NCBI GenBank assembly: GCA_937983075.1
Contig: CALKAQ010000008.1
Span: forward strand, 554 to 64,553
Direction: 5' to 3'
DNA length: 64,000 nucleotides
Origin: an uncultured bacterium
GTDB taxonomy: Bacteria; Bacillota; Limnochordia; DTU080; JAAYLA01
A program made the translations under genes and the position numbers. Positions 6,938 to 28,866 of this stretch are shown here, piece by piece. The first letter of the stretch is position 1; every line of letters begins with the position of its first letter. Under the pieces are notes generated by a model, which ran no database searches, was not told the DNA's origin, and was given only the letters and a program-made list of their open reading frames with translations.

Positions 6938-7984
6938 ATGAAAAACGGCCGATTGTCTCCCTTTCGAGTGGCGAGTTTATATGTTGGGACCGTTGTCGGT
7001 GCCGGATTTGCATCTGGACAAGAAGTTCTCCAGTTTTTCGGTCACCATGGCATGTCCGGATTTTGGGGCCTTGCGATTGCAACGGTCCTTTTTGTTGTTT
7101 TTGGGGCGATGACTTTCGTGCTCGGTCACCGTCTGCGTGCGACATCCCACCTTGAAGTGGTGCAGCACGGCGGTGGGAGTTGGCTCGGCACCGTCATCGA
7201 TGCGATGATTACGTTTTTTCTGCTCGGATCTTTCAGCGCCATGGCAGCCGGCGCCGGTGCCGTATTTCACGAGCAGTTTGGTTTACCAGCAGTCTTGGGC
7301 AGCCTTGCCTTGTCCACCTTGAGTGTTCTCACGGTATTGATGGGGATTCAAGGGGTCGTGTCAGCGATCAGCTTTGTTGCGCCCTTTCTCATCGGTTCCG
7401 TTCTTCTGATCAGCGCCTTTTCCATCGCGCAAAATCCGATCGACTGGAACTGGTATCAGCCCCAAAGCGCATCCGTGCCGTTCTGGCCTCTCGCCGCCAT
7501 AATTTATGCGTCGTACAACATGGTTTTTGCCATCCCGATTTTGGCTCCGGCAGGAACCTTGAGTGATGAACATTCGTTAAAGAAGGGAGCCTTGTTCGGC
7601 GGCATCGGTCTCGGCTTGGCGGCGCTGATCATTCAGCTTGGCATGCTGTCGGCTATGCCCGAAGCGAGTCGGTACGACGTTCCCATGCTGCTCTTGGCAA
7701 GCCGAGTTTTCGGTGCATTCGCCCCGATATACAGCATCGTCCTGTTAGCCGAGGTGTACACCACGGCAATCGGCAGCTTGTATGGATTTGTCGCCCGAGT
7801 TACGGCTGGGAACAAGGCACTCTTCTCAGTCGCAACACTTGGCACCGGACTCGTCGGATTTACCGGCAGCCTGATTGGATTTTCGAACATTGTAGGCAAG
7901 GTGTATACGGCAATCGGCTATGCGGGTATTTGCCTTCTCATTCCACTGGTCGCAGCGTCGGTGAAAAGTCAAGGGAGCAGGTAA
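6938..7984 (+). CDS. YkvI-family polytopic membrane protein (amino-acid/germinant permease-like)
   Basis: 348-aa, ~10-TM protein. N-terminal LYVGTVVGAGFASGQE is characteristic of the YkvI family. Confidence 0.6.
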   Translation: MKNGRLSPFRVASLYVGTVVGAGFASGQEVLQFFGHHGMSGFWGLAIATVLFVVFGAMTFVLGHRLRATSHLEVVQHGGGSWLGTVIDAMITFFLLGSFSAMAAGAGAVFHEQFGLPAVLGSLALSTLSVLTVLMGIQGVVSAISFVAPFLIGSVLLISAFSIAQNPIDWNWYQPQSASVPFWPLAAIIYASYNMVFAIPILAPAGTLSDEHSLKKGALFGGIGLGLAALIIQLGMLSAMPEASRYDVPMLLLASRVFGAFAPIYSIVLLAEVYTTAIGSLYGFVARVTAGNKALFSVATLGTGLVGFTGSLIGFSNIVGKVYTAIGYAGICLLIPLVAASVKSQGSR

Positions 7985-19450: not shown

Positions 19451-19611
19451 GAACCGTGCCTACGTGGTATGCTGAAACGGCCTCATCGTATCATATGGCC
19501 TGCGGTTGAACAAGTGAAGGAGCGGGCAGCCGCGCCAGACGACCCGGCGGGATTCTGCGAACTCCGTATAAGTAAGCATTTAGGCGGCCTGATGGCCGCC
19601 ACCTGCATCCC

Positions 19612-19836
19612 TTAAACACTCTCCATCCCAATCACCAGCATCATGACCAGCGGCAACAGGATCAAGAAAATAGAGATGGCAAAGGGGAGCCATTCGCGGG
19701 ACCGCGCAGCAAAAAAGGCAGCGAAGACGAACGCAACCAAGTGTGCCGGCGAAATGACGAGGGACAAAAGCACCCCAACGATGATATAAATCCACGGGTT
19801 GCGCCAATCGAGCTGTTGTGCGCCCTCAGGCTTCAT
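19612..19836 (-). CDS. Small membrane protein (74 aa), unknown
   Basis: Two predicted TM helices. Lies between lspA and the low-GC insertion. No recognisable family. Confidence 0.35.
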   Translation of the reverse strand: MKPEGAQQLDWRNPWIYIIVGVLLSLVISPAHLVAFVFAAFFAARSREWLPFAISIFLILLPLVMMLVIGMESV

Positions 19837-19966
19837 AGCAGAACACCTCTGTCAAAAGCACTTTCTGGTACCAGCTTGGCGAATCTGTCAGTTAGTTTAG
19901 CTCAACTACAACAGAAATGAAACCTTGCATTACGGAAACATATTATAATGCCGGCCTGCCAACTCA

Positions 19967-20461
19967 TCATATCTCTCTTTTTACTTCCCGTGTCATTCCA
20001 AGTAGCCACTTCACTTGACTACCAACTTGTGGACAACGTCTTTTTCTGATTGCTAAAAAATAGCAACGTATCACAACGACCACCCATATTGCCTCAGCTG
20101 TTTCAATGGGCGTTGTTGAAGACGGAATTTTCAACCTTGGGATCCGTTTCGACAGTTTGCCAGAATATCCGCTACGACCGTTATTCAAACAAAGAGCCAC
20201 TCCACAGGCATTACACAAAAACCCATTAGCTTTAACAGTGACGACATGACCAAATGACAAGGTCCGGACGTGTATGCCGTTCCATTGCGCACCACCTTCC
20301 GCGCTAACGCCCGCGGTGAATGCATTTGCAGACTCAATGCGGAAACGAATATACGCATCCCCACTGAGTTGCGGGAATTTTTTCGGTACACCCGACAGCT
20401 GATCTATAGAAACGTTGTAACGTGAATTATTCCAGAGTATATTTCCTCTGTTTCCGCCCAA
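19967..20461 (-). pseudogene. Possible orphan gene fragment in low-GC DNA (beta-rich ORF, no start context)
   Basis: 164-aa frame within AT-rich sequence. The upstream end runs into the IS remnant. No RBS or start identified. Confidence 0.25.
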
Positions 20462-20880
20462 ATAAGCAGGCCGAGCGTTTCATTGTATTCAAAAAGAGAT
20501 TGATAACTAACTCTCGCTATGTCTTTGCCGTCGAGCTTGATCATCCGTTCTTCCCGTACTGTAATCGCCGGGCAGAACCCAATCCAATTCGCCTCATGTA
20601 CACCCCTCCACCTTTGTGAAGCCATTACGGGCGTCGGTTATGCGTATGGCTATCTCAAACTCACGCCATTTGCGTCGAGAGTATGGCCTCATCATCAACA
20701 AGAAAAAAGTCTATCGCTTATGCCATGAGCTGGGCATCTTAAGGCCTCAGCGCAGTCTAAAACCAAAATGTCGTCGCAGAATCGCTAGGAATCGGATCAT
20801 TATAGGCCCAAACCAGCTGTTTGAAACAGACATCAAGTCTGGGTACATTCATGGCAAAAGGTAAGTCAAGCCGAAAATAT
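20404..20880 (+). mobile_element. IS3-family transposase remnant (OrfB N-terminus only, truncated before DDE domain)
   Basis: …INKKKVYRLCHELGILRPQR…PNQLFETDIKSGYIHG matches the start of IS3/IS150 OrfB and then stops. GC is much lower than the flanking DNA. No inverted repeats or complete orfA were found. Confidence 0.65.
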
Positions 20881-20924
20881 GAGATCCAGCATAAACGTTA
20901 GGCAAAACGACCACGACTCAAGAC

Positions 20925-22181
20925 TTACCCAAAAATTTCACGATCGCATCCTGCCCCATCGAACCAGAATATGACGCCTGTACCGTGGGTACGCCAGTAA
21001 TAGACTGGAAGAACACTCCCGAGTCCTGCCTCAACTTTCGCAAGGCCGTTTCGTGCCAGCTCCAGCGTGACATTTCCGGTTATTCGCCCCGACCAGTCAT
21101 CAATGAGTTCATTGCTGACGTATGCGTATGCCAGGCTTGTAGGATTCGCAGTGGGATCAAACGGATCAGGTCCGCCTTGAACATAAAAGGTTTCAGACAT
21201 ACGCCACTCGTCCGCCAGGTAAGTGATCTCACCACCGGCATGGTCAAACATGAACGTATTGTCCGAGTAGATGCGAAAAACCGCATACGGCTGCCACGAA
21301 GCAAGGTGTTCCGCTCCGGATGTGACTCTGATTTCCGGGCCTCTGCATATCTGGAGATCGTACGGTCCGTGGTCGATGGTTTGACCTTCCAACCGATTGG
21401 CTCGTTGCCTCATTATCCGCTGCCTCATTTCGTCGACGGACTCAACGCCTGGGGTGACGACTTGCGAGATGTGCACTTGTTCTATGAGCAATGAACCGAC
21501 ATGACCGTCGACGTCTTCCACCCATAATTTACCTACATATGCACTTCCCGGATCAACGGATATCACACATGAAATGTCGGCACGGTGTATGTTGCAAAAC
21601 CCGGCATCGCTATGCACACTTGAAATTTCCACATCAAATTGAAATGCGAACTCGAAAGTCGTTTGATCGTGCTTATAAACGATGACCCTGTCAACCAATT
21701 GCGGGGCCAGCGCGACAGCAAGAACGCCGCTGCCAATTTCCGACGAGTTGCCCAGCGAATCCCAAACCGTCAACGTCCATTCCCATATGTTGTCGTGAAG
21801 GTCTGAATCAATGGAGTAAGCAGATTCCGCAAGCCCGGTCTTCACCACTTTGCGCTTCTCCAGATCATCATCGGAGACCATAAGCGGCAGGAATTCGATT
21901 TGCCATTTCGCTTGGGGCGAACCGATGGGACTGTGGTAATCCCATACAAATGTGACATTGGCTCCGCGAGCATAGCCTGTTTGATCGACGCCGATGACTT
22001 CAACCACACCCGTCGGAGCCGTTGCGTCCCGTTCGGCATCGGCGTTCTCCGTTATAAAGCGAGTAGAGCGCACTTCGTCGAACGAGAAGACCGCAGAGTT
22101 ATTCGCATCCGCTTCTGCGCTGATGATGGTTCCCGCGCAGACAATCAGAATCCCTAATGCCACGAACCCCAATCGCCTCAT
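20925..22181 (-). CDS. Secreted protein of unknown function (signal peptide; ~52–55% GC)
   Basis: Start MRRLGFVALGILIVCAGTIISAEA gives a signal peptide. 419 aa, beta-rich, with no recognisable catalytic motif. Confidence 0.6.
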   Translation of the reverse strand: MRRLGFVALGILIVCAGTIISAEADANNSAVFSFDEVRSTRFITENADAERDATAPTGVVEVIGVDQTGYARGANVTFVWDYHSPIGSPQAKWQIEFLPLMVSDDDLEKRKVVKTGLAESAYSIDSDLHDNIWEWTLTVWDSLGNSSEIGSGVLAVALAPQLVDRVIVYKHDQTTFEFAFQFDVEISSVHSDAGFCNIHRADISCVISVDPGSAYVGKLWVEDVDGHVGSLLIEQVHISQVVTPGVESVDEMRQRIMRQRANRLEGQTIDHGPYDLQICRGPEIRVTSGAEHLASWQPYAVFRIYSDNTFMFDHAGGEITYLADEWRMSETFYVQGGPDPFDPTANPTSLAYAYVSNELIDDWSGRITGNVTLELARNGLAKVEAGLGSVLPVYYWRTHGTGVIFWFDGAGCDREIFG

Positions 22182-22395
22182 GCCCTGAACCTCCCGGCGA
22201 AACTTTTGCCCTGCTCCCGCGGGAATCCATCCCATTGTGTCTAATATCCATTATCACCAAAAGTTGCCGATTCCACTTTCATACGTTCGAAAAGTTCATG
22301 CATTATCCTCCCTGTTTTTATGATATTGTATATAAAATTGTCATTCAGCCATTCAAAACAGAGGTGACATGCCACACAGCAGCCGCCCATCTTCA

Positions 22396-22968
22396 TCAGC
22401 CGTTGCCCTTTTCTTCATCATCGTCGTCCGGATCAAACTCCTCCGGCGCGTCTTGTGGCGAATTGGCCGTCCCGTGCCGAGCGACAATTTCCCACGCATC
22501 ATCCCCGTCCATTTGATAATCTTCTTCGCCGAGGTCATCGGACGCGCTGAACGGAAAAGGGTTAGCCTCTTCTTCAATCGGGCGCATGGGACGTTCCACC
22601 TGTCCGGTCATTTCTTCGCTGCAGTCGACACACATGGTCGTATAAGGAATGGCCTCCAAGCGAGCTTCGGGAATCGGCCTGCCACAACGCTCACAAATCC
22701 CGTAGGTGCCGGCGTCCATCCGCTCAAGCGCGTGATTACACGCCGACAAAACGTAGTCCGCTTGAGCAAGCAGCCCCAAATCTTTCGATCGTTCCATCGT
22801 CTCGTTTCCCAAGTCCGAAGTGTGTTGATCCAAGCTGGAAAGTTCACCGACCGATTCCGACAAGCTCCGTTCAAACGCCGTTTCCCACAGCGAGTCCCGC
22901 AGTTCCCGGCGCTCCTGCATGACCTCGAAAATGCGCTGACGAAATCGCTCCAATTGCTGCTGCCGCAT
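22396..22968 (-). CDS. DksA/TraR-family C4 zinc-finger protein (YteA/YlyA-like) with acidic C-terminal tail
   Basis: C-terminal CERCGRPIPEARLEAIPYTTMCVDC Cys4 finger. Start MRQQQLERF at 22968. The longer ORF to 23367 is upstream read-through. Confidence 0.75.
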   Translation of the reverse strand: MRQQQLERFRQRIFEVMQERRELRDSLWETAFERSLSESVGELSSLDQHTSDLGNETMERSKDLGLLAQADYVLSACNHALERMDAGTYGICERCGRPIPEARLEAIPYTTMCVDCSEEMTGQVERPMRPIEEEANPFPFSASDDLGEEDYQMDGDDAWEIVARHGTANSPQDAPEEFDPDDDDEEKGNG

Positions 22969-23174
22969 CGACCACCACTCCCACCGAAAGAAATCGAATC
23001 TGGAACTTCGTGCATTTCGGCTGATCCCACACAAAGTGAAACAGAACCGTATACGAAATAACCGACGGGCCTTCCCCCTCCCACACGCAACGAAACAGAG
23101 CGGTATCCGCTGCTCAATCACCTGCATCGGCGCAAAAGACGTCGCATCGCTCCTGTCTCCGAGCTGACGGTAGG

Positions 23175-23489
23175 TTACGGTACAGCCTTCATTTCGCTGG
23201 CGACAATTTTCGCTATGCTGGCGAAAAACTCGCCAATGACAGGCAAGTTCAGCTGCGCCAGGCGGATCATCAATGCCACAAAAAGCGTTGTCACCAGTGT
23301 CAAGCCGATGGCGATACCGAATCCTCGCGCCACCCCGGAGAGGAAGTTTAGGTAAAGCATGCGCCAAGGGCGGTTGTACAACTCAATGAATTCGGCCAAA
23401 CTTGCTTTCTCAAATGCTTCCACCGCCTCTTGCAGCCGTCGGATCAAGGTCGCCGCAACTCCGTGGCGCAATTCTTTGTTATGGTTCAC
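23175..23489 (-). CDS. DUF5665-like small membrane protein
   Basis: LYLNFLSGVARGFGIAIGLTLVTTLFV…NLPVIGEFF matches the conserved core as I recall it for DUF5665. Start is probably GTG at 23489 (AGGGG upstream). Confidence 0.45.
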   Translation of the reverse strand: MNHNKELRHGVAATLIRRLQEAVEAFEKASLAEFIELYNRPWRMLYLNFLSGVARGFGIAIGLTLVTTLFVALMIRLAQLNLPVIGEFFASIAKIVASEMKAVP

Positions 23490-24189
23490 CCACTGAACAC
23501 CCCTGGCCTCAAAGATCCTTCCACCGTGATACTCTCTCCTCAGCGGTGAGTCAGTATAAGCCGAACAAGGGAAATCAGATGGGCCAAAGGGAAGCACGGT
23601 ATACAAAAAACGAGGCGACTCCTCCAAGCCGCCCCGGACCAATCCGTTATTCCCTCCTCTTGAGCCGTCTCGATCGGAAACTCAGCTATAGGTAATCAAT
23701 CAACTCACAACCATCTCCGTCAATTCTGTACCGCATGTATGTGCTGTACGGCCTAAAAAATCCTGTAACAAGTTCGGACCCGGTGATGAACAGCTCCCAT
23801 TCATACAAACCGTCGTTAGTAAGCGTTATGCTTGCGGATTGGCTCCAATCATTTCCTTCAAGAATTGTCCAATCACCGCTAAAACGCAAGTCAGCGATCT
23901 CAGCCCTGGAAATAGGCTCCAGTCAGAACTTCGGCAGCAGCCGGCTCCCCAACGAGTCCGATCATGCCCATCGCGATCATTAGCGGCAACCATCTACCCA
24001 CTTAAAACATTTCCCACCTTACGTATTTTTCGAAACTCAATGAACTACAATTAACCGTTTCCCCCACAAATACCTTCTTTACCCGCCCCACACGGAGCGA
24101 AACAGAACTGTATCCTCAAAATTCGCTTGGCTGCAGGTGATAAGCGGAGTAGAGTAGAAGGCGGAACACCGAATGGAGGCCAATTGCAC

Positions 24190-25515
24190 ATGGAATGGAA
24201 GACAGATCGATCCCGCGAACTTTATGCTGAGGCAAAGCGCCATATCGTCGGCGGCGTCAACAGCCCGTCACGCGCTTTTGGTGCTGTCGGACGTCCCTAT
24301 CCCATCGTGATCGACCGAGGTCAAGACGCCTATCTATGGGATGTCGACGGCAATCACTACATCGACTACTTGTGCGCTTACGGTGCCATGCTGCTCGGAC
24401 ATGCGCATCCTCATATCGTCGAAGCCGTGCAGCGAGCTGCAGCCCGCGGTACGGTCTACGGTACGTTGACGGAGCTTGAAATCGCCCTGGCCATTCGGCT
24501 GAAAGAAGCACTGCCTTTTGTCGATCAGTTTCGCTTTAACGTATCGGGAACCGAAGCGGTCATGAGCGCCATACGCGTAGCACGCGGCTACACCGGGCGC
24601 GATAAACTGCTGAAGTTCGACGGCTGCTATCACGGTCATACCGATCCGATGCTCGTCGCGGCCGGCAGCGGAACGTCGACGCTCGGGATTGATGAAAGTG
24701 TCGGCGTCCCCAAAGGGATTACCCAAGATGTCATTTCGATTCCGTACAACGACGTGGAAACCTTCACCCGCGTCATGGAGGAACAAGGCGAGCAAATTGC
24801 CGCTGTCTTGGTCGAGCCGATCGTCGGCAATTTTGGCATCGTGACACCCGCCCCCGGATTCCTCGAAACCATCAGCCGCCTCGCAAAAGAAGCCGGTGCG
24901 CTGACCATTTGGGACGAAGTGGTCACGGCTTTCCGCTTCCGCCCCGGTTCGGTGCAGGCGTATTTTGACTGCACACCCGACATCGTCGTTCTGGGCAAGC
25001 TGATTGGCGGTGGCCTGCCCATCGGAGCTTACGGCAGCCGGGCCGAAATCATGGAAGTCGTCGCCCCAGTCGGGCGCGTTTATCAAGCAGGCACCTTAGC
25101 CGGCAACCCCGTTTCCACAGCTGCGGGTTTGGCGTTTCTCGAAGCGATCGAAAGCGATCCGACGTTATACGAACGCACCGCACGCTACGCTAGAATATTG
25201 GCCGATACAATTGAAGACGCCGGAAAACGCCATGGCATCCCCGTTTCCGTGGGACTCTTCGGCGGAGCCCTTTCACCGTACTTCACTGATCAGCCGGTCA
25301 CCGACTTTGCCGGCTGCGAAGCTTCCGACTCCGCACGTTTTGCCCAGTTCTTCGGCTACATGCTCGAACAAGGCATATGTTTTGCACCTTCCAAATTCGA
25401 GGCGCTGTTCGTTTCCGCCGCCCACAGCGAATCCGATATCGACTACACAATTGAGGCGATTGAACGCGCTTTCGCGCGCATGGCGCGTGAAGAACCGCCT
25501 GTTTTGGATTCGTGA
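24190..25515 (+). CDS. hemL: Glutamate-1-semialdehyde 2,1-aminomutase
   Basis: 441 aa from MEWKTDRSRELYAEAKRHIVGGVNSPSRAF. PLP-Lys motif region GKLIGGGLP. Confidence 0.9.
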   Translation: MEWKTDRSRELYAEAKRHIVGGVNSPSRAFGAVGRPYPIVIDRGQDAYLWDVDGNHYIDYLCAYGAMLLGHAHPHIVEAVQRAAARGTVYGTLTELEIALAIRLKEALPFVDQFRFNVSGTEAVMSAIRVARGYTGRDKLLKFDGCYHGHTDPMLVAAGSGTSTLGIDESVGVPKGITQDVISIPYNDVETFTRVMEEQGEQIAAVLVEPIVGNFGIVTPAPGFLETISRLAKEAGALTIWDEVVTAFRFRPGSVQAYFDCTPDIVVLGKLIGGGLPIGAYGSRAEIMEVVAPVGRVYQAGTLAGNPVSTAAGLAFLEAIESDPTLYERTARYARILADTIEDAGKRHGIPVSVGLFGGALSPYFTDQPVTDFAGCEASDSARFAQFFGYMLEQGICFAPSKFEALFVSAAHSESDIDYTIEAIERAFARMAREEPPVLDS

Positions 25516-25609: not shown

Positions 25610-28429
25610 TCAGTTTTCCCCGCCGGTTTCAGCCATCTTGCTCAAGACCTTCGAGCACCGTTCACACAGCGCATCTGCATCTTCTTCCGCTTCCGCCGCT
25701 GCGGGCTCAACCACGTGGCGCCAGCAGCGCGGGCATTTCTTGTGCGCCGTTCGCTCCACGGCCACCGTCAAACCGCTGTCCGTCACCGTGACGACATCAG
25801 CGGTCGGCGGCTGCGAACCGACGGCCTCTACCTTCACGTGAGCTGCAATAAACAGCTCGGCCAGCTTGTCTTTCAACGCGTCCAACGTGTTGAAGACCGC
25901 CTCATCCTGCGGATACAGCGTGATGTCGGCCTCCTGGGACGAGTTCATGACTTTCCGGTTCCGCGCCTCTTCCAGCGTTCGCGTGACCACGCGCCGCAAT
26001 GTAAGGAAGCGCTCCCAGCGGGCTGCGAGCTCATCATCGAGCACAAACTGCTCGATACGCGGCCAGCGTGCCAGATGAACCGAAGGCTGCGTGCGTGTCG
26101 ACGGATGAATGTATTCCCAAATTTCATCCGCCGTAAAGGCCAAAATCGGTGCAATGGCGTGGACGAGCAAGATCAAAATTTCATGCAGCGCCGTCTGGCA
26201 CGAACGCCGCCACCAATCGTTCGTCCCTTCGCAATACAGCCGATCTTTGCGCACGTCGAGATAAAAGCCGCCCAAATCGACCGCGCAGAAGTGGTGCACG
26301 GCGTGATAGACCGTGTGGAATTCGTACTTGCGGTACGCATTGACCACCCGGACAAACATGCGGCGTGCCCGATCGATCGCCCACCGATCCAGTTCGTCCA
26401 TCGCCGCCGTGGGAACGGCGTGTTCCACGGGATTAAAGTCGCGCAAGTTGCCCAGCAAGAAGCGGCAGGTGTTGCGAATGCGGCGATACACTTCGGCCAC
26501 CTGATCGAGCAGCTCCTCGGAAATCCGCACGTCACCGCGATAGTCCGCCGAAGCTGCCCACAAACGAACAATGTCGGCACCGTACTTGTCGATCAATTGC
26601 TGCGGAGCAATGACATTGCCCAGCGACTTGGACATCTTGCGGCCTTCCCCGTCGACGGTAAACCCGTGCGTAAGCACCGAACGGTAAGGTGGACGCCCCG
26701 TCGTCGCCACCGAAGTCAAAAGCGACGACTGGAACCAGCCGCGATGCTGGTCGCTTCCTTCGAGATACAAGTCCGCCGGTCGCTGCAGCATCGGATGCTG
26801 GACGAGTACGGCTTCATGGCTCGAGCCGGAATCGAACCAAACATCCATGGTGTCTTGTTCTTTTTCGAAGCTTTCACAGCCGCATTCCGGGCAGCTCGTT
26901 CCTGCCGGAAGAATTTCGGCTGCCGTGCGGGTGAACCAAGAATCGGAGCCTTCTGCGGCGAAAACATTGGCAATGGCATCGATCGTCGATTCATTGATCA
27001 ACGGATGGCGGCAATCCGTGCAGTAGAAGATCGGAATCGGCACACCCCACACCCGCTGGCGGCTGATGCACCAGTCGCCCCGATCGGCAACCATACCGCG
27101 AATGCGTTCCTTCCCCCAGGCGGGAATCCATTCCACTTCGTCGATGCTCCGCAGAGCTTCCTCACGAAAGCCTTCCACCGAGGCAAACCACTGCTCGGTT
27201 GCTCGGAAGATAATCGGGTTGTGGCAACGCCAGCAGTGCGGATAGCTGTGGTCGACCTTGCCGTGGCCGAGCAAGTCGCCTGCCTGGCGCAGATCATCGA
27301 TGATGCGCTCGTTGGCGGCAAACACCTGCAAACCTTCGTACTTGCCGGCTTCGGCTGTAAAGCGGCCCGTTCCGTCCACCGGGGCGAGCACGTCGAGACC
27401 GTACTGCAGACCGACCTCGTAGTCTTCAAGACCGTGGCCAGGAGCGATATGTACGCATCCGGTACCTTGTTCGAGCGTGACGTAATCGGCCAAAATGACG
27501 ACGGAATCACGGTCGATGAACGGATGTCGGCACACTACGCCCTCGAGTTCGGCACCTTCAAAACGGGCGACGACTTCGTGTTCCATCCAGCCGACGTGCT
27601 TGGCTACTGACGAAACGAGTTCCTCGGCCACGATGTACCGGGCGCCGTTCGCTTCAACCAAGGCGTACCGATATTGTGGATGCAGCGCAATGGCCAAGTT
27701 GGCCGGCAAGGTCCACGGCGTCGTGGTCCAGATGATGACGTATGTATTTTCACCGTCCAACTTGCCTTTGCCGTCAACTACCGGAAAGCGAACGAAAATC
27801 GAATCCGACCGGTGATCGTCATACTCAATTTCAGCTTCCGCCAGAGCCGTTTCACAATGTGCGCACCAGTAGACGGGCTTGAGCCCCTTATAAATGTAGC
27901 CCCGCCGATACATCTCGCCGAAAACACGAATTTGCGCGGCTTCGTACTCGGGATGAAGCGTCAGATACGGATTGTCCCAATCGGCCCAGACGCCGAGCCG
28001 TTCGAAGTCCTTGCGCTGAATGTCAACGAAGCGAAGCGCATATTCGCGGCAGCGCTTGCGGAACTCCAGCGGGGACAGTTCATGGCGGTTGACTCCGGAT
28101 TCTTTAATGACTTGCTGCTCAATGGGCAAGCCGTGCGTATCCCAGCCCGGAACATAAGGCACCCAGTAGCCGTCTTGGGAACGGGAACGCACGACAAAGT
28201 CTTTCAAGATTTTGTTCAACGCCGTCCCCATATGGATGTGCCCGTTGGCATACGGCGGGCCATCGTGCAAAACGAAGCGCGGTCGGCCGTCCAAGCGGCT
28301 GTTTTCCTGCAGCTTCTGATAATATTTTCCTTCTTGCCAACCTGCCAACCGCTCCGGTTCCCGCTGAGCCAAATTCGCCTTCATGGGGAAATCGGTGTTT
28401 GGCAAATTGAGTGTCTTGCGATAATCCAT
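25610..28429 (-). CDS. ileS: Isoleucyl-tRNA synthetase
   Basis: 940 aa from [22 protein letters not shown] ([11 protein letters not shown]) and KMSKS motifs. C-terminal zinc-binding Cys cluster. Confidence 0.95.
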
Positions 28430-28504
28430 TCCACGATCCTCCTCTTCCAAACAACAGGAAGCGTTCCTTGTTTTGGCAGGGTGGCCCAAAATACAAACGA
28501 TCGC

Positions 28505-28866
28505 CATATAAAACAAAAAACCTTCCGCCCTCAGCAACTACAGATGAGGACGAAAGGATCACCTTCCGCGGTACCACCTCAGTTGGAGACGAACATTTCG
28601 CTCCCTCTTAGGAACGCCCGATATCGGGGGCCACCGGCCCGGTCTACTGCCGGCCTGATTGCCGGGTTCGGCGGGCAGCTCGGGGGCGATGGTCGATAGC
28701 GGCGTACGGGACTGGGCTCCCACCTTCCCCCAGCTCTCTGCACCCGCAAGACCGCCGACGGTCCCCTTCATCGCTCACTGACGGCCCGCTTCGGTGGTGG
28801 CCGTCATTCTATGGCAAATCTTGATGACCAGCTCTCATGCTGTGCCTGCCGCATCAGCATGCACGT
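28505..28866 (-). promoter_or_regulatory. T-box riboswitch leader of ileS
   Basis: Minus-strand AGGUGGUACCGCGG T-box sequence (28566–28579). Terminator hairpin CCUUUCGUCCUCA…UGAGGGCGGAAGG followed by UUUUUUG. Stem-I AGAGA element and AUC specifier candidate. Confidence 0.8.

Follow-up and report, generated by a model that had tools for sequence, protein, structure and literature searches.

The gene ylyA belongs to a classical Bacillus neighbourhood, ileS-ylyA-lspA-ylyB-pyrR, and in Bacillus the YlyA protein binds RNA polymerase and adjusts the expression of forespore and germination genes. Described short DNA elements with which the one reported below can be compared include the WalR operator, a direct repeat of the form TGTWAH-N5-TGTWAH, and parS, the Spo0J site, which reads TGTTNCACGTGAAACA. 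The adjacency of ileS and ylyA is stated in PMC5282499, and ylyA has been described as needed for normal spore germination and its product as an RNA-polymerase-binding protein. The sigma-F consensus of B. subtilis is given as GYATA and GGnnAnAHTR with a spacer of 14-15 nt (PMC11599450).

The locus considered here lies in a stretch of 64,000 nucleotides from an uncultured bacterium, which was analysed as a whole and is termed the window. The nearest named relatives of its YlyA protein are from metagenome-assembled genomes labelled Limnochordia or Firmicutes. The neighbourhood is conserved, in the order ileS ... ylyA-lspA-rluD-pyrR-pyrB, with lspA, rluD, pyrR, pyrB and pyrC found downstream of ylyA, whose ATG is preceded by the ribosome-binding sequence GGTGGGAGTGG. 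Around ylyA and the adjacent DUF5665 gene are three copies of a motif, which is a real, selectively conserved DNA element of about 30 bases. All genes adjoining these copies are on the minus strand with the exception of the hemL-like gene, which is divergent from the minus-strand units (Table 1).

Table 1. Position, strand and description of the motif copies and of the genes and signals around them; positions are those of the window.
Feature	Position	Strand	Description
ylyA-like DksA/TraR C4 zinc-finger gene	22396..22968	-	190 aa; Pfam PF01258, 2.3e-14; synteny
Motif w1	23024..23054	-	GTATACGGTTCTGTTTCACTTTGTGTGGGAT; ylyA-proximal, 55-86 nt 5' of ylyA ATG
Motif copy 1, 28-nt form	23027-23054	+	CCACACAAAGTGAAACAGAACCGTATAC
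Motif w2	23078..23108	-	GGATACCGCTCTGTTTCGTTGCGTGTGGGAG; 110-140 nt 5' of ylyA ATG
Motif copy 2, 28-nt form	23081-23108	+	CCACACGCAACGAAACAGAGCGGTATCC
DUF5665 gene	23175..23489	-	104 aa from GTG start; Pfam PF18910, 1.5e-17
Sigma-F-type promoter of DUF5665	23530..23559	-	TTATA-N15-GGAGAGAGTA; separate from motif
Intrinsic terminator	23603..23636	-	11-bp stem then TTTTTT; closes w3-headed unit
Insertion of ~510 bp relative to L010	23618..24127	-	Approximate boundaries; pairwise alignment with L010
Small ORFs, different frames	23686..24001	-	67 aa (23686-23889); 33 aa, signal-peptide-like (23900-24001)
Motif w3	24085..24115	-	GGATACAGTTCTGTTTCGCTCCGTGTGGGGC; hemL-proximal edge of species-specific insertion
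Motif copy 3, 28-nt form	24088-24115	+	CCACACGGAGCGAAACAGAACTGTATCC
hemL-like glutamate-1-semialdehyde aminotransferase gene	24190..25515	+	441 aa; Pfam PF00202, 2.1e-67
ileS	25610-28537	-	Gene map

The motif had been reported in the initial annotation as three 28-nt copies in a single orientation on the plus strand, and its coordinates are exact. Also right are the 26-nt separation of copies 1 and 2, their distances of 59-86 and 113-140 nt from the ATG of the ylyA-like gene (22968) and the distance of copy 3 from that of hemL (24190). The conserved core, put there at about 20 of the 28 positions, comprises 21 positions that are invariant across the three copies, and the motif is indeed not a palindrome. 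The assertion that this degree of repetition is beyond chance holds too: with up to three mismatches allowed, no fourth match is found on either strand of the window, and 100 dinucleotide shuffles yield 0. Conservation runs 3 nt past the 28 nt, to ...GTGTGGG on the minus strand, and we accordingly describe 31-nt minus-strand forms, w1, w2 and w3. Their core is ATAC-N-GY-TCTGTTTC-RYTNN-GTGTGGG and the fuller unit is G-N-ATAC-N-G-Y-TCTGTTTC-R-Y-T-N-N-GTGTGGG. These comprise three conserved blocks: the central 8-nt block is invariant, the 3' block is G-rich and not AT-rich, and some copies have a mini-dyad, ACAG-TT-CTGT.

The strand, the target gene and the cassette idea of the earlier reading are in need of correction. 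Read on the minus strand, every copy has a unit of that strand downstream of it, ylyA in the case of w2 and w1 and the small ORFs in that of w3, which is 84 nt upstream of the small-ORF GTG (24001) and ends 74 nt before the hemL ATG. Start to start, w2 is 54 nt upstream of w1, and the spacing between w2 and w3 is 1007 nt. A position weight matrix was built from five instances, namely w1, w2, w3 and one copy from each of the two related species described below. It scores the true copies at 46-48 bits, with nothing else reaching 8 bits in the 64-kb window and no inverted partner copy detected there. Outside the motif, the roughly 40 nt around the five instances are devoid of any other conservation. 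In public data, the exact pattern has one match among the GTDB representatives (185,579 species genomes), in a coding region of an Acetatifactor metagenome-assembled genome, against about two matches expected by chance on our own estimate; a scan of JGI metagenomes gave one match, in low-complexity eukaryote-like DNA, and a scan of IMG/VR viral sequences gave zero. A MITE or dispersed repeat, one of the earlier proposals, finds no support in a non-palindromic motif that has no other copy in the 64 kb and whose matches in public scans are at chance level or absent.

The exact YlyA protein is encoded on many Logan contigs at least 99.6% identical to the window, all of which have the three copies; runs SRR32187463 and SRR22013516 are among the sources. 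Nine such same-species contigs show zero variants in any copy, which is uninformative. Beyond the species, the initial annotation had named a lack of conservation in relatives, along with a lack of further genomic copies, as refuting; the motif passes this test in part, for two sister species do keep it upstream of ylyA. The first, with a YlyA protein 89% identical (contigs L017, L023, L024, L025 and L027), has one copy, CCATACAGTTCTGTTTCGTTGCGTGTGGGAT, 76 nt 5' of the ylyA ATG. In the second, contig L010 with 79% YlyA identity, the single copy GCATACGGTTCTGTTTCGCTCCGTGTGGGAT is 33 nt 5' of the ATG, the ribosome-binding sequence being within those 33 nt. In both, 27-29 of the 31 motif positions are retained. 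The spacer between DUF5665 and ylyA measures 206 nt in the window, 170 nt in the 89% species and 92 nt in L010, and is unalignable outside the motif. Thus, the motif is kept in orthologous upstream regions while the flanks diverge, as is typical of a cis-regulatory site, and its conservation amid otherwise unalignable spacers indicates that approximately 27 nt of it are under purifying selection.

The position of w1 makes it the counterpart of the single copy in L010 and the L017 group, and the variable 5-nt block does not decide the matter: it exists in just three versions, ACTTT in w1, GTTGC in both w2 and L017, and GCTCC in both w3 and L010. By our own reading, a second, decayed copy may also be present in L017: GTTCTATATCTGTTTATGTGG, which lies about 55 nt downstream of the intact one. 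This distance would match the 54 nt that separate w2 from w1 in the window.

In more distant relatives the motif is absent. Those with YlyA identities of 52-62% (L013, L014/L015, L016 and L018-L020) have a motif-free gap of 14-30 nt between DUF5665 and ylyA, and two with 55% identity have a motif-free spacer of 126 nt (L011 91-216 and L012 10-135), which may represent another, independent way of expressing ylyA separately. Given these motif-free relatives, the element is new to one small clade of uncultured Firmicutes related to Limnochordia, its ancestral site being the DUF5665-ylyA spacer.

The DUF5665 gene is directly upstream of ylyA in every relative for which that flank was recovered, inclusive of the distant motif-free ones. 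Since it is beside ylyA even where the motif is lacking, synteny identifies DUF5665 as ancestral and not as the cargo of a cassette. Its promoter fits the sigma-F consensus quoted above, and six relatives, with YlyA identities as low as 52%, keep it as YATA-N15-GGAGAnAKTA; the pattern occurs just once in the window. This conserved promoter suggests that DUF5665, probably together with ylyA, was ancestrally a forespore-expressed operon in the lineage. No terminator was found between DUF5665 and ylyA, and hence read-through alone could express ylyA.

The motif was compared with a range of described elements. Among operators the closest is that of WalR: the motif has TGTTTC-N6-TGTGGG, an asymmetric TGT...TGT direct repeat with the halves about one helical turn apart. 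This is a resemblance only, as the halves are spaced by 12 nt where WalR has 11, the second half-site agrees at 3 of 6 positions and there is an extra ATAC block. The parS half-site TGTTTCAC is present exactly in w1, but it has no palindromic partner, and the other copies read TGTTTCGC or TGTTTCGT. With sigma-F and sigma-G promoters the motif shares its length of about 30 nt, its location 30-110 nt upstream of the sporulation-associated ylyA, and an NNATAC that resembles the GYATA/GHATR -35 element. Yet L017 begins CCATAC, the bases 15 nt after the motif's NNATA are NNGTGTGGGA (positions 21-30), with no -10 element, and an invariant 8-mer stands where a spacer would be; the spacing rules out membership of the sigma-F class, and the genuine sigma-F-type site is 400 nt away, before DUF5665. 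The superficial likeness to sigma-W/ECF promoters (TGAAAC-N16-CGTA), from GAAAC on the plus strand and in copy 1 also CGTATA, was rightly set aside in the initial annotation: GAAAC and CGTA are 5-6 nt apart and not 16-17, each copy has different bases 16-17 nt downstream of GAAAC, and in the relatives no gene lies in the direction of the plus strand. A scan of 22300-24300 for the sigma-A consensus (TTGACA, 16-18 nt, TATAAT) revealed no site overlapping any copy. Compared by eye, promoters of sigma-B, -E/K, -G, -H and -54 fail on spacing or hexamers, and the sites of LexA, CcpA (cre), Spo0A, SinR and AbrB, the PurR box, GerE, SpoIIID, the DnaA box, dif, Tn7 ends and T7-type promoters do not agree with the motif in spacing or in key bases.

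The repeats have some likeness to CRISPR or att arrangements, being 28-nt units, two of them separated by a 26-nt spacer, and direct repeats that flank about 1 kb. In contrast to either, the copies are approximately 75% identical and a single copy is kept at the same place in other species. A CRISPR array is rejected in view of the 21 of 28 shared positions, the spacings of 54 and 1007 nt and the lack of cas domains in the 47 larger ORFs. The idea of att-like repeats bracketing a DUF5665 cassette likewise fails: DUF5665 is beside ylyA in relatives with or without the motif, and Pfam searches of the 47 larger window ORFs found no integrase, recombinase or transposase. Of the segment between the copies, the presence or absence of which was to be compared in relatives, just the w3-headed part of about 510 bp is variable.

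This insertion is confined to the window species and separates the DUF5665 promoter from the conserved 5' region of hemL. Its minus-strand order is w3, a ribosome-binding sequence, the small ORFs and a strong terminator, the last of these just before DUF5665's own promoter. No Pfam family was detected in the small ORFs, the 67-aa ORF has zero homologues in the protein database, and a 531-bp segment of the insertion is unmatched in phage and plasmid collections. The two ORFs together may be a frameshifted gene for a small secreted protein; a single-base indel would join them into a protein of about 100 aa, and their frame state is the same in all covering contigs of the species. In the 89% relative (L025 1-177, L026 2-448) the gene upstream of DUF5665 is not hemL and encodes ...YWATEDPLFFEEISKPILSCVDYVFTV..., and homology with the window starts only at about 23598. 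This different gene and the break in homology mark the spacer upstream of the DUF5665 promoter as a rearrangement hot spot.

Among the explanations originally offered, a regulatory binding site is the best class. Within it, we tentatively favor, with a probability of roughly 40%, a lineage-specific, self-contained minus-strand promoter, or such a promoter with an overlapping operator. An alternative sigma factor or regulator would read the motif as a leftward signal for transcription initiation, which would have arisen in the spacer opened between DUF5665 and ylyA in one small clade, and would provide ylyA with its own point of initiation or control besides the read-through that starts at the sigma-F-type promoter of DUF5665. 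Two elements would serve ylyA in the window species, where the third would head a new insertion next to hemL made up of motif, small ORF and terminator. Starts would be expected 5-12 nt downstream of GTGTGGGA at the three copies.

This proposal draws on the common orientation of the copies towards minus-strand units, on the retention of the motif upstream of ylyA in the sister species and on the failure of the RNA-structure alternatives, as well as on three further points. First, the gap between the motif and the ribosome-binding sequence in L010 has no room for another promoter; with nothing conserved nearby and just 33 nt before the ATG, any start-site specificity near the motif must be inside it. 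Second, w3 has no gene or promoter of the minus strand upstream of it, where the 5' region of hemL lies on the opposite strand, so a self-contained promoter alone covers all instances by one mechanism. Third, the w3 unit is directly followed by a terminator, ahead of the DUF5665 promoter, which is sensible only if that unit is transcribed. Against the promoter, the motif fits no promoter consensus compared by eye, its G-rich 3' block is unusual for a -10 element, and its invariant central 8-nt block is unusual as a promoter spacer. A wider regulon would be hypothetical, with further copies absent from the 64 kb. A more ambitious form of the promoter proposal would see in the ~30-nt block an entire, uninterrupted promoter, read by an undescribed sigma factor or regulator in a Limnochordia-related spore-former lineage, controlling YlyA and portable with a small ORF and a terminator as a mobile promoter cassette; this we hold to be distinctly improbable. 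As a separate observation, position 1 of the Logan contig L004 (17.9 kb) corresponds to window position 23014 on the minus strand, and the contig therefore ends 10 nt downstream of w1; this may reflect the 5' end of a transcript, provided that the run, SRR24044326, is RNA-derived, or may be coincidental, and is a weak hint.

The G-rich 3' block and the invariant 8-mer, both unusual, and the absence of a terminator behind DUF5665 keep alive the alternative that the motif is an operator without promoter activity, an unlikely reading though one to be taken seriously. It would be bound by a DNA-binding regulator, e.g. of the forespore SpoVT/AbrB or the response-regulator type. This protein would form a roadblock, or exert modulation, within the DUF5665-ylyA transcript; in the window species it would do so next to the hemL promoter as well. 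Three blocks with an invariant centre and a mini-dyad resemble a protein-binding site more than a -35/-10 pair, sigma-F-type read-through is present for modulation, and w3 ends 13-20 nt from a putative hemL -35 element by our own reading of the sequence. However, an operator leaves w3 without a consistent role, since the L010 hemL spacer is motif-free, and does not explain the motif-ORF-terminator layout of the insertion; nor is the motif matched by the operator consensuses considered, of which the closest, that of WalR, fails in spacing and second half-site.

It is improbable that the copies are non-functional remnants, i.e. scars of duplication or recombination, decayed ends of a mobile element or a site-specific recombination site. 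All copies are inside 1.1 kb, at or beside lineage-specific insertions and rearrangements; w3 is at one edge of the insertion, and near the other we recognize a 12-nt look-alike in the same orientation, GTATACCGTGCT (23593-23604); the versions of the variable block are common to different species, w2 sharing its version with L017 and w3 with L010. The shared variable blocks, the decayed L017 copy and the look-alike suggest, without being decisive, that the element has undergone duplication and turnover. Nevertheless, an identity of 27 of 31 nt at 79% YlyA identity, amid unalignable spacers, is unexpected without selection. Moreover, duplication does not extend to the flanks of w1 and w2, Pfam searches of the 47 larger window ORFs revealed neither a recombinase nor a transposase, no copy has an inverted partner, the DUF5665 gene between the copies is ancestral, and the insertion lacks a homologue in the phage and plasmid collections.

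An element acting at the RNA level appears highly doubtful. It would be a weak hairpin, GUUUCRY / GUGGGAU, in the 5' leader or between cistrons, serving as a site for protein or sRNA binding or for processing. Two candidate helices were examined with RNAalifold, by folding single sequences and their shuffles, by counting pairs and by computing hairpin energies. The 7-bp hairpin is paired in 97% of cells, in minus-strand RNA only, and all four variable stem positions preserve pairing (A-U to G-U, C-G to U-G). But there are zero double compensatory changes and the shuffle control is uninformative; the hairpin energies of -5.1, +1.3, -5.3, -4.7 and +0.3 kcal/mol make it unstable in two of five copies; z-scores of single-sequence folds against shuffles range from -1.07 to +0.87; and the alternative helix between blocks 1 and 3 is without covariation. 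Such an element would leave the conserved 5' block unexplained and w3 still in need of an upstream promoter. No relevant Rfam family was matched at the gathering threshold or even at E<=10, and no double-sided helix changes were seen. A role as terminator was also rejected: the T-rich block follows a hairpin in L010 and w2 only, and this is not general.

Finally, the original suggestion of a site co-regulating hemL and ylyA, here taken as a plus-strand site of a shared heme or stress regulon and favored by the closeness of w3 to hemL and of w1 and w2 to the divergently placed ylyA, is scarcely tenable: in L010 hemL adjoins DUF5665 across a motif-free spacer, in the 89% species that other gene precedes DUF5665 and the spacer is motif-free on the recovered contigs, the conserved ancestral site of the motif is the DUF5665-ylyA spacer only, and copy 3 is part of a species-specific insertion with its own minus-strand unit and terminator, which makes its closeness to hemL an incidental by-product.

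The motif is matched by none of the searched libraries and is restricted to a very narrow clade; in kind, as a cis-regulatory site, it is ordinary. If it is a promoter or an operator, it would mark the uncoupling, in one clade, of ylyA from an ancestral DUF5665 operon of the sigma-F type, and with a full genome it would offer a sequence handle for the rest of the regulon. The main practical value of the analysis is in the corrected strand, target genes and cassette idea; otherwise, this is a routine, narrow regulatory site.

Some further features of the window were observed. Upstream of ileS is a T-box leader (28543-28780, minus strand; 83 bits, E=1.5e-18), which the default Rfam scan missed because its score is below the gathering cut-off of 93. 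The 89% relative (L023) lacks a segment of about 2.7 kb between ylyA and the lspA region (~19518-22257). In the window this segment has the gene for a 436-aa protein (20925-22235, minus strand) with a signal-peptide-like N-terminus and without a Pfam match, called at 418 or 436 aa on contigs of the same species. At 6938-7984 on the plus strand is a weak match to Spore_permease (GerAB-like); taken with ylyA and the sigma-F-type promoter, it would fit an organism that forms endospores.
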